Below, in pieces: positions 15,319 through 17,162 of a stretch of DNA of 64,000 nt (positions are counted from its first letter, which is position 1; each line of letters opens with the position of its first letter). Source of the stretch: Eledone cirrhosa (Eukaryota); contig OZ024766.1 of assembly GCA_964016885.1 (NCBI GenBank), positions 5,208,001-5,272,000 of the forward strand, written 5' to 3'. The notes under the pieces are model-generated. The model was not told the origin of the DNA, did not search any database, and was given only the letters and a program-made list of their open reading frames with translations. The translations under genes were made by a program, and so were the position numbers.

Positions 15319-17162
15319 TTATCCTTCAAATGTTATTTTCATGGTCACTTCTGAGAAATACGACCTTGTTTGAGGTTTCAACTTTATGAAATATTCACCA
15401 GATTTTGGATTTGTCATGGTAACCTGTTGGTCAGTTCCAGGTTTGTTTGATCTCCATTTCGTGAGATGTTCTTTACAGTTAACCTTCCGGAAACAAACAT
15501 AAAGATCCACATCCCCTTCACCGGAGAATGTCAGGACATTCACTTTCTTCCACGGTGTCTTCTTTACGGTAAGTTTAAAGATGACTTCCTCACCTTCTAC
15601 AGATTTAAGTTTCTCCACAGTCGAGTTCTGATGGACGCTACGTACATATATAGAGATATCACACGCTTTAATGCCGACCTTATTGAAAGACTTCTTAACG
15701 GCCTTCAAATCGTAGCCAAGGTCGTACGCGGCTTTTATAATATCGCAAGCGCCCTCTTTAAAGCCAGTTATTGGATGCCAATAGAAGCGATTTGCGAGGG
15801 CAGCTATCTGAAATGTCTTTTGCACATTCCAGCCCTCACTTTTCGACAAAAGGCAGAAAAACCTGTTAAATATACCACTGGAGTAGTGTACATTAAGGTC
15901 ATCACGGTATTTGCTGGTGTGTATAATTGAAGAACCGTCATCTGATTGCTTACACATTTTCCGCAGTGGCTTGGAGGAAATGTCCTCTCCGATTTCCCAA
16001 TTGTTTTTGTCAAATTCAAAGTATTCCGCTGTTGCTCCAGCCAGGTCGCTGTAAGCTTCATCTATTGCCCCTGACTGAGCTTCATATATCAAACCAGAGT
16101 TCTCCTCAGTGAAACAGTGCGAGACTTCATGGGCAACAATATCTAAGGCGACGAGGGGCATATAATCTTTGTTACCATCACCAAATGAAAAGGTTTTCCC
16201 ATTGTAAAAAGCATTTACAACATCACGACCATAATGCACTTGAAATATCATAGGAAGCTCTTTTTTTGGTGACACATTCGCCCATTCCTTGTACATGTTG
16301 TAGACAACCGAACCATAAAACAAAGCATCATTTATAGGTGAATAAGCATTGTTAATTTCATCTTGCGACCCTTTCTTACAATTAACATGATAAATTTTCT
16401 GTTCATCGGCATTTAAAATCTTTCTACCCTTCATATTGAAAACTTTAACGTCATTATTTAAAAAATAACAATCTTCACCACTTTGTTCCACATTTAAATA
16501 TGGCATGTCCTCTCCATATACATGTTTCCCCATCAATTTATTACCTCCACTACCTTCTATTTCATGAGGCACTAGTTTATTTTCCAGAGCGTTCCATTTC
16601 TCAAGAAGGTCTCCAGTCTTAGCATCAATCATCATACAGAATCGATAATTTCTCTTATCAGTCACAGCGAAATATCTCACTCGATATACCAAGAAACCTT
16701 TCTGGTCCTTCACATAGATCTCCAACAGGGGTTTCTCACTCTCTATATGGACCCCTTCTGTCGTGAAATTACCGTACATCACCGCTAACTTCACAGCTTC
16801 GTCTTCAGTGACATTTGGTTTCGTAGATTCGATGTCTTTGTCAAGATTTTGGACAAGTTTCCCGGTCACTTGACCAGTATAGAGGTCAGTCACTGCATCA
16901 GTCTCGACAGTGAGGGTAGCATCAAACACTGGAAGTCCTTCATAAGTTTCTTTGTACTTCTTGATGTCAGTTCCTTGGACGCTCTGAGCAGAATCTGTCA
17001 GTTTTACGTCCTCATTCTCTGTCATGCCAAACAGGTCCCTTGTGGTGATTAAACGATGGGGTTCCCGCTTCATCTTCTCACTCAGGGATTCCACGTTGGA
17101 CAAGAACACGTCCCTAGCCTGTCGCCATTTTGCTGACATCACAACATCGTTGCCCAGCAACG
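15319..17162 (-). CDS. M4 (thermolysin/LasB/vibriolysin-type) zinc metalloprotease, copy 1, exon 2; joins exon 1 at 20311-20359 to give 630 aa
   Basis: HEVSH at 16117-16131, GAIDEAYSD third ligand, NAFY, VHYSSG, FTP (YEGLPVF) and PepSY (IDAKTGDLL) propeptide, PPC domain (GDVDLYV). Collinear with LasB (GGN..GK..YG, AYSP.NDA.F.G.VV, NR.YW, GAC). Polypyrimidine+tag acceptor at 17163. The poly-Ile N-terminus of the 650-aa ORF is intronic (aat)n. Confidence 0.93.

Follow-up and report, generated by a model that had tools for sequence, protein, structure and literature searches.

Venom enzyme families, such as the snake venom metalloproteases and PLA2, are composed of recent tandem duplicates of secreted enzymes in which dN of the mature part lies above the neutral level and the pro-region is conserved. 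In the M4 metalloprotease LasB, according to PMC4407726, the residues at S1' positions set binding and activity; the list of S1' residues used here (F129, L132, V137, H140, I186, G187, I190 and L197) was compiled from PMC4407726 and PMC9404851. Peaks of divergence under gene conversion have been described for exon 5 of the human red/green opsins, RHCE/RHD, Drosophila CG18281/CG17637 and copepod GOT1, and in these cases (PMC3924837, PMC2588116, PMC3728101) a functional island is surrounded by low divergence and its rare transfer yields a new chimera.

In the stretch of Eledone cirrhosa DNA analysed here (the window, 64,000 nucleotides), a gene for an M4 metalloprotease of the secreted type is present in three copies. 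Copy 1 is encoded on the minus strand, whereas copies 2 and 3 form a tandem pair on the plus strand with a spacing of about 13.5 kb. Each copy consists of a short hydrophobic exon 1 and a long exon 2 separated by a phase-1 GT-AG intron. Exon 1 of copy 1 (20311..20359, minus strand) has a phase-1 GT donor and 16 hydrophobic codons with which a signal peptide likely begins, and exon 2 (15319..17162, minus strand), preceded by an AG acceptor, encodes the signal end, the propeptide, the M4 catalytic domain and a PPC-like C-terminal domain. Codons were numbered from the Met of exon 2 (window position 17139, minus strand). On the plus strand, exons 1 and 2 were located at 32742..32788 and 37973..39816 for copy 2 and at 47463..47508 and 51488..53331 for copy 3, the two second exons differing by nine nucleotides. 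The window also contains exon 1 of a fourth copy (63573..63621, plus strand), exon 2 of which lies beyond the window (G000:C27:5278412-5280255). The exon 2 frames of all four copies are free of stops and frameshifts. Exon 1 is open in copy 3; in copy 2 its assembled sequence is out of frame and meets a stop after five codons, and this may be a real lesion of a young pseudogene or an assembly error. The broken form was absent from the two contigs listed across this exon (runs X1 and X2), and such contigs drop variants. Other small oddities adjoin the same exon.

Long minisatellite arrays with units of about 51, 59 and 72 bases reappear alongside the gene units and are inverted around copy 1 (9200-10530, 19163-22905, 23949-28184, 31211-34221, 45099-48485 and 59914-64000). 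Such arrays could seed duplications and exchanges.

The search of the own genome gave at least eight matches, including the fourth copy 7 kb outside the window and three older M4 genes on other contigs of the assembly. Copy 5 was found 3.7 Mb away on the same contig (G000:C27:8973948-8977019, minus strand), with a catalytic domain 71% identical. It carries about 360 extra residues in an open frame exactly between the propeptide and the mature domain, made up of acidic and Asn/Lys-rich 13-residue tandem repeats. The public runs covered two samples from one study, from which the assembly itself may derive; among the runs listed, none was registered as RNA with a stated tissue. In run X4, a contig joined exon 1 of copy 5 to exon 2, and therefore the family is spliced and not a contamination. 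Run X4 was taken as RNA on the basis of this one spliced contig, and both pocket types described below were present in it too; no spliced contigs of copies 1-4 occurred among the matches listed in the public runs. Bacterial contamination was ruled out by the spliced gene, the 22 Mb contig and the mollusc orthologues.

Judged by their sequences, the copies belong to the M4 family. All three window copies matched Pfam Peptidase_M4 (87-88 bits, cut-off 22.4) and M4_C (108-111 bits, cut-off 24.4). The propeptide is of the FTP type (Pfam FTP, 22.5-23.6 bits, cut-off 21) and matched the MCP-02 propeptide chain (E 6e-10), and the PPC-like C-terminal domain scored 20.5-20.8 bits, below the cut-off of 25.9. 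Copies 1-6 retain the HEXXH motif with the downstream Glu zinc ligand (H337, E338, H341 and E361) and the catalytic residues equivalent to LasB H223, R198 and Y155. A thermolysin fold is suggested by about 40% identity to solved structures, the best PDB matches falling into the pseudolysin/vibriolysin branch (LasB 1ezm/9gm4, MCP-02 3nqx and 6ya1; E 5e-84).

The best named homologues were Octopus 'elastase' proteins (59-63% identity). Such 'elastase-like' M4 genes occur in Octopus (XP_014767445, XP_029653636), Argonauta, Sepia, scallops, oysters and mussels, and a midpoint-rooted FastTree of 59 sequences grouped the mollusc genes in a single clade, separate from the bacterial proteins with names, with a support of 0.99. 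In contrast to these relatives, copies 1-5 formed a clade of their own in all three domain trees, which indicates a lineage-specific expansion. Two distant M4 genes (G000:C2 and G000:C4) fell outside the mollusc clade of copies 1-6 into a second clade with unnamed proteins and possibly represent a second old animal lineage or a second acquisition. A further gene (G000:C25), together with two Octopus paralogues and those of Argonauta and Sepia, lacks the Asn112 equivalent and has a small residue at the position of 186, and may represent a third, older pocket type. No study of cephalopod or mollusc M4 genes was found in the open-licence papers and bioRxiv entries searched.

The differences between the copies are concentrated in the catalytic domain and the S1' wall, with the zinc and catalytic residues untouched. 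Copies 1 and 2 differ over their 606 codons by 53 nucleotides and 37 amino acids. A single amino-acid change, accompanied by three silent ones, lies in codons 1-189, and 36 lie in codons 190-457; codons 458-606, the last 149, have no nucleotide difference. By domain, the same single replacement and three silent differences fall into the propeptide of copy 1 (codons 1-187, 16579..17139, minus strand) and the 36 replacements into the junction and catalytic domain (codons 188-492, 15664..16578, minus strand). The DNA of the C-terminal domain (codons 493-606, 15322..15663, minus strand) is identical in copies 1, 2 and 4, with one change in copy 3. These counts reproduce the original prediction, made by manual alignment, of about 36 differences between the propeptide and the tail and of none in the last 150 or so residues, the latter extending even to the DNA. 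Its count of one difference in a propeptide of about 195 residues is right for codons 1-189 but becomes three for 195 residues, because the propeptide/mature junction includes the changed codons 190 and 193. In 16141-16260 versus 38875-38994, the recount agreed with the claimed 14 nucleotide differences, two of them synonymous, and gave two silent and ten changed codons.

At the junction itself, five of the eight codons 190-197 vary among the copies. M4 enzymes cleave off their own propeptide, and thus the variation at the junction may reflect its co-adaptation with the cleft.

The possibility that the differences arose from faulty assembly was rejected, both pocket types being present in contigs of all four public runs. 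Contigs with the pocket of copies 2/3 (17 differences, 16108-16272) and with a copy 4-type pocket (2 differences) were found in four of four runs, and a piece with no differences from copy 1 (15919-16062) in one.

The comparison of copies 1 and 2 by counting (kappa 2) gave dN 0.064 and dS 0.030 in the catalytic domain versus dN 0.001 and dS 0.013 in the other domains, and the non-coding flanks differed in 19 of 806 columns. Against a neutral reference of 22/1033, composed of the flanks and the non-catalytic silent sites, replacement divergence of the catalytic domain was clearly raised (42/696, p=4e-5) and silent divergence was not (7/219, p=0.33). A dS raised as much as dN in this domain, which the original prediction had named as evidence against itself, was looked for and does not occur. 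In the pocket tract (codons 300-420; 15880..16242 in copy 1, minus strand), which contains HEXXH, the third zinc ligand and every S1' residue, silent divergence was borderline raised (p=0.056).

For the whole catalytic domain, the dN/dS of 1.5-2.2 did not exceed 1 significantly when measured against the silent clock of the domain itself (p=0.06, 0.12 and 0.13), and the domain outside the pocket had a dN/dS of 1.2-1.9, compatible with relaxation. Site models had been proposed earlier as a check; all models were run here with custom code rather than codeml or GENECONV. The comparison M1a-M2a was significant at first (p 2e-5 to 7e-4) but weakened with adjacent double mutations allowed (p=0.005 and 0.054) and failed with all doubles allowed (p=0.26 and 0.63). 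The claim of positive selection across the whole domain is therefore suggestive only, and the predicted diversifying selection stands at the S1' pocket, where it is significant, but not for the domain as a unit.

The weakening of these models bears on the idea that clustered multi-nucleotide mutation mimics positive selection. Adjacent differences were indeed in excess (7 versus 2.9 expected, p 0.0008-0.02), and the blind site models lost strength once doubles were allowed. However, adjacent doubles account for none of the five S1' changes, the pocket tests survived with doubles allowed, the codon-count test is independent of the number of hits per codon, and the near-absence of change outside the catalytic domain would be left unexplained, so this explanation deserves hardly any credence.

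The LasB numbering was read by hand from a HMMER alignment (LasB number = codon - 197 through codon 388 and codon - 195 beyond it), and this reading agreed with the equivalents of F129, L132, V137, I186, L197, D221 and H224 assigned in the original prediction. Between copies 1 and 2, five of the eight S1' residues are changed, or five of seven if the zinc His is left aside (16164, 16155, 16140, 15993 and 15966 in copy 1, minus strand), as compared with 36 of 305 codons of the domain (exact p=3e-4; 8e-4 for 5/8), which bears out the claim that the changed sites hit the S1' wall. The pocket had first been noticed post hoc, a point against the selection reading. The enrichment held within the pocket tract alone (p=0.002 for 5/7 and 0.005 for 5/8), after matching for conservation in 263 of 264 homologues drawn from the best 120 of 318 and the best 150 of 9583 matches (p=3e-4), and under neutral simulation (p=0.0002-0.004). 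The fitted dN/dS of the pocket was 8-18 without double mutations; when these were allowed under a local clock, it was 5.6-18 (p=2e-5 to 0.012) and exceeded 1 in all eight variants. Among 20 published contact residues, with Y155 used where the paper prints Tyr157, the enrichment was weaker, six being changed (p=0.02; within the tract p=0.12).

No S1' residue (0/7) differs between copies 1 and 4 despite 21 catalytic-domain differences, and one of seven differs between copies 1 and 5 despite 91. The pocket tract of copy 2 (38893..39255, plus strand) encodes Glu, Phe, Met, Phe, Ile and Glu at LasB positions 129, 132, 137, 186, 197 and 224, and that of copy 3 (52408-52770) the same pocket. Among the 263 homologues (best 120 of 318 and best 150 of 9583 matches), Glu129 and Met137 each occurred in none, Phe186 and Glu224 each in two, and Phe132 in 14, the last also being present in copy 5. 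These frequencies point to copies 2/3, and not copy 1, as the bearers of the derived, unusual pocket, a direction which the original prediction had not set. The changes in copies 2/3 are predicted to shift cleavage specificity.

Two further positions, 172 and 183, which we take to be calcium ligands in LasB, are altered in copies 1-4. Position 172 (codon 369, about 16035) is Ala in these copies and Glu in 246/263 homologues, and position 183 (codon 380, about 16002) is Asn or Ser and in 247/262 homologues Asp, both counts referring to the same set of best matches; Glu and Asp are kept at these codons in copies 5 and 6. The calcium site was thus likely lost in copies 1-4. The mature domain has a net charge of -8 in copy 1, -14 in copy 2, -13 in copy 3 and +4 in copy 4, so that surface charge forms a second axis of difference. 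The computed pI of copy 4 is 8.5, compared with 5.1-5.6 for copies 1-3, and the changes specific to copy 4 are mostly towards Lys/Arg.

Relaxed constraint would explain the differences by near-neutral drift of the catalytic domain after duplication, copies 2/3 being possibly inactive, with conversion keeping the other domains identical. Such drift would fit a domain dN/dS not significantly above 1, the placing of more than 90% of the catalytic sites near 1 by M2a, the calcium-site residues already altered in all four copies, the broken exon 1 of copy 2 as assembled, and the lowered activity of LasB changed at F129, L132, V137 and L197, as given in PMC4407726. It is countered by the pocket enrichment, which holds against the neutral null (p 0.0002-0.004), by the retention of all zinc and catalytic residues in four intact exon 2 frames, and by the sparing of conserved sites, as only 4 of 47 variable codons fell on 65 conserved positions over the four copies (p=0.012; not significant for copies 1 and 2 alone, p=0.079). 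Repeated toggling was also observed, copies 2/3 matching copy 5 and copies 1/4 matching copy 6 at codons 252, 308, 329, 360, 371 and 378. This amounts to 6 of 25 changed sites, versus 1-4% expected from a simulation that had no site-specific preferences and overstates the surprise, and it too speaks against drift. Micro-conversion from copy 5 or 6 at these sites was rejected, as the neighbouring third positions mostly mismatch the donors. Relaxed constraint was considered unlikely.

Exchange between the copies was evident from copies 4 and 5, both outside the view of the original prediction, which had proposed gene conversion homogenising the flanking domains. The flanks of copy 4 differ from copy 2 at 5 of 806 positions, from copy 3 at 7 and from copy 1 at 18, and are thus copy 2/3-like; its pocket is copy 1-like. 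Over 17 successive variable sites (codons 300-360), copy 4 is identical to copy 1 (corrected p=0.0012; runs test p=2.7e-4). The silent divergence between copies 4 and 2 is clearly raised in the pocket tract, to about 10 times that of the rest (p 6e-5 to 4e-4). Either the pocket of copy 1 was transferred into a gene otherwise of the copy 2/3 type, or all but the pocket was homogenised, and both origins of the mosaic need exchange between copies. Sites common to copies 3 and 4 only (codons 81, 261 and 263) point the same way.

Copy 5 combines a young propeptide with an old catalytic domain. Compared with copy 1, silent codons differ at 20/164 in the propeptide, 83/205 in the catalytic domain and 18/78 in the tail (propeptide versus catalytic p=8e-10; tail versus catalytic p=0.008), with dS of 1.0 in the catalytic domain and 0.19 in the propeptide. 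The propeptide also contains an identical run of 123 bases (p=0.002). No such contrast between propeptide and catalytic domain was found for the older copy 6, used as a control (p=0.12).

Replicates in other cephalopods were also considered. Concerted evolution of the Octopus A/B/C propeptides was not borne out despite identities of 77-84% versus 65-77%; species-grouping propeptide sites numbered zero in all three pairs of the three named Octopus paralogues, and hence no recent conversion is visible there at the protein level. The tandem pair of O. vulgaris (CAI9743404/5) and a Sepia pair are identical in the propeptide and catalytic domain and were set aside as uninformative.

Conversion alone would mean a catalytic tract from, or as old as, an older paralogue under ordinary purifying selection. 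Such an origin does hold in kind for copy 5 and for the tract of copies 2/4. For copies 1 and 2, however, the pocket tract has a dN of 0.10 and a dS of 0.05, as compared with a dN/dS of about 0.22 (0.21-0.26) for the older paralogues. A model with a single dN/dS and a free rate per domain was rejected (p=0.004-0.009), as was the family-typical dN/dS of 0.25 (LRT 24-31), and therefore conversion alone fails. No hidden donor paralogue was found among at least seven DNA and at least eight protein matches in the assembly, and stretches of the catalytic domain identical to copy 5 or 6 reached 19 nt at most. This explanation was largely refuted by the tract dN versus dS, the model tests and the missing donor, and we regard it as highly improbable.

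The similarity of the copies also allows the pocket types to be read as partly alleles under balancing selection made tandem by assembly, with copies 2/3 as one locus or copy 4 as allelic. Long blocks of copies 2 and 3 share about 99% identity, and the flanks of copy 4 are within 1% of copies 2/3. On the other hand, three distinct types of 15902-16062 (0, 6 and 9 differences) were present in runs of one sample, which requires a minimum of two loci. Copy 1 moreover lies in inverted orientation and copy 4 carries a 3' insertion of its own, and even alleles would call for selection on the pocket. The allele reading was judged quite improbable.

On the whole evidence, the four recent M4 copies exchange DNA by gene conversion, with selection probably keeping two different substrate pockets. 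The original prediction had joined selection and conversion by 'and/or'; both are supported, but as processes acting together rather than as alternatives. The propeptide and C-terminal domain would be interchangeable parts, kept alike by purifying selection and conversion, and the cleft would be the diversified part, moving between copies as a cassette of about codons 300-420. According to the peak-of-divergence model, conversion would level the interchangeable parts and selection would protect and drive the cleft. The bulkier wall of copies 2/3 (Leu -> Phe, Ile -> Met, Ile -> Phe) is predicted to narrow S1' and favour a smaller P1', and the two new glutamates on the rim to favour basic neighbours; the two pocket types are expected to cut different sequences. 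Copy 4 would have diversified in surface charge (net +4 versus -8 to -14). The use of such diversity would most likely be a secreted protease mix that handles a broader range of food or prey proteins, or evades their inhibitors. The Octopus M4 accessions were not among the available entries of the salivary proteome supplement (PMC7693380).

A broader reading is doubtful and offered tentatively. It holds that the genes form a modular, bacterial-type LasB/vibriolysin family with exchangeable pocket cassettes, locked in an arms race against proteins of prey or microbes, in which the S1'/S2' chemistry of copies 2/3 (acidic rim and narrowed pocket), absent among the 263 best-matching M4 homologues, would give a new specificity in salivary or defence secretion.

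The locus offers a natural experiment on thermolysin-family specificity, with the propeptide and tail alike and the catalytic domain 12% different, and the differences focus on the residues known as S1' in the drug and engineering literature on LasB. Within a single exon, selection can be told apart from gene conversion, a chimeric copy included, in what is apparently an unstudied, fast-evolving bacterial-type protease family of cephalopods.

Compared with the LasB/vibriolysin branch, the copies share the layout of propeptide, catalytic and PPC-like domains, HEXXH, the third Glu and the equivalents of Tyr155, Arg198 and His223; unlike that branch, they are spliced animal genes with an unusual pocket in copies 2/3. 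With the venom enzyme families they would have in common the tandem duplicates, a secreted-type enzyme, a mature-part dN above neutral and a conserved pro-region, yet they belong to a different protease family, and the likeness to venom or defence enzymes drawn in the original prediction is an analogy. The evolutionary pattern is known in kind, and what is new is the pocket chemistry and the cassette-like mosaic. As in the peak-of-divergence systems, low divergence surrounds a functional island whose rare transfer gives a chimera: conversion between the M4 duplicates is evidenced by the copy 4 mosaic and the copy 5 propeptide, and the local peak falls on functional sites, codons 300-420 holding all S1' residues, of which 5/7 differ. 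Unlike in those systems, the island is the substrate cleft of an enzyme inside one exon, carries mostly replacement changes and is seen at two time depths, in copies 1-4 and in copy 5.
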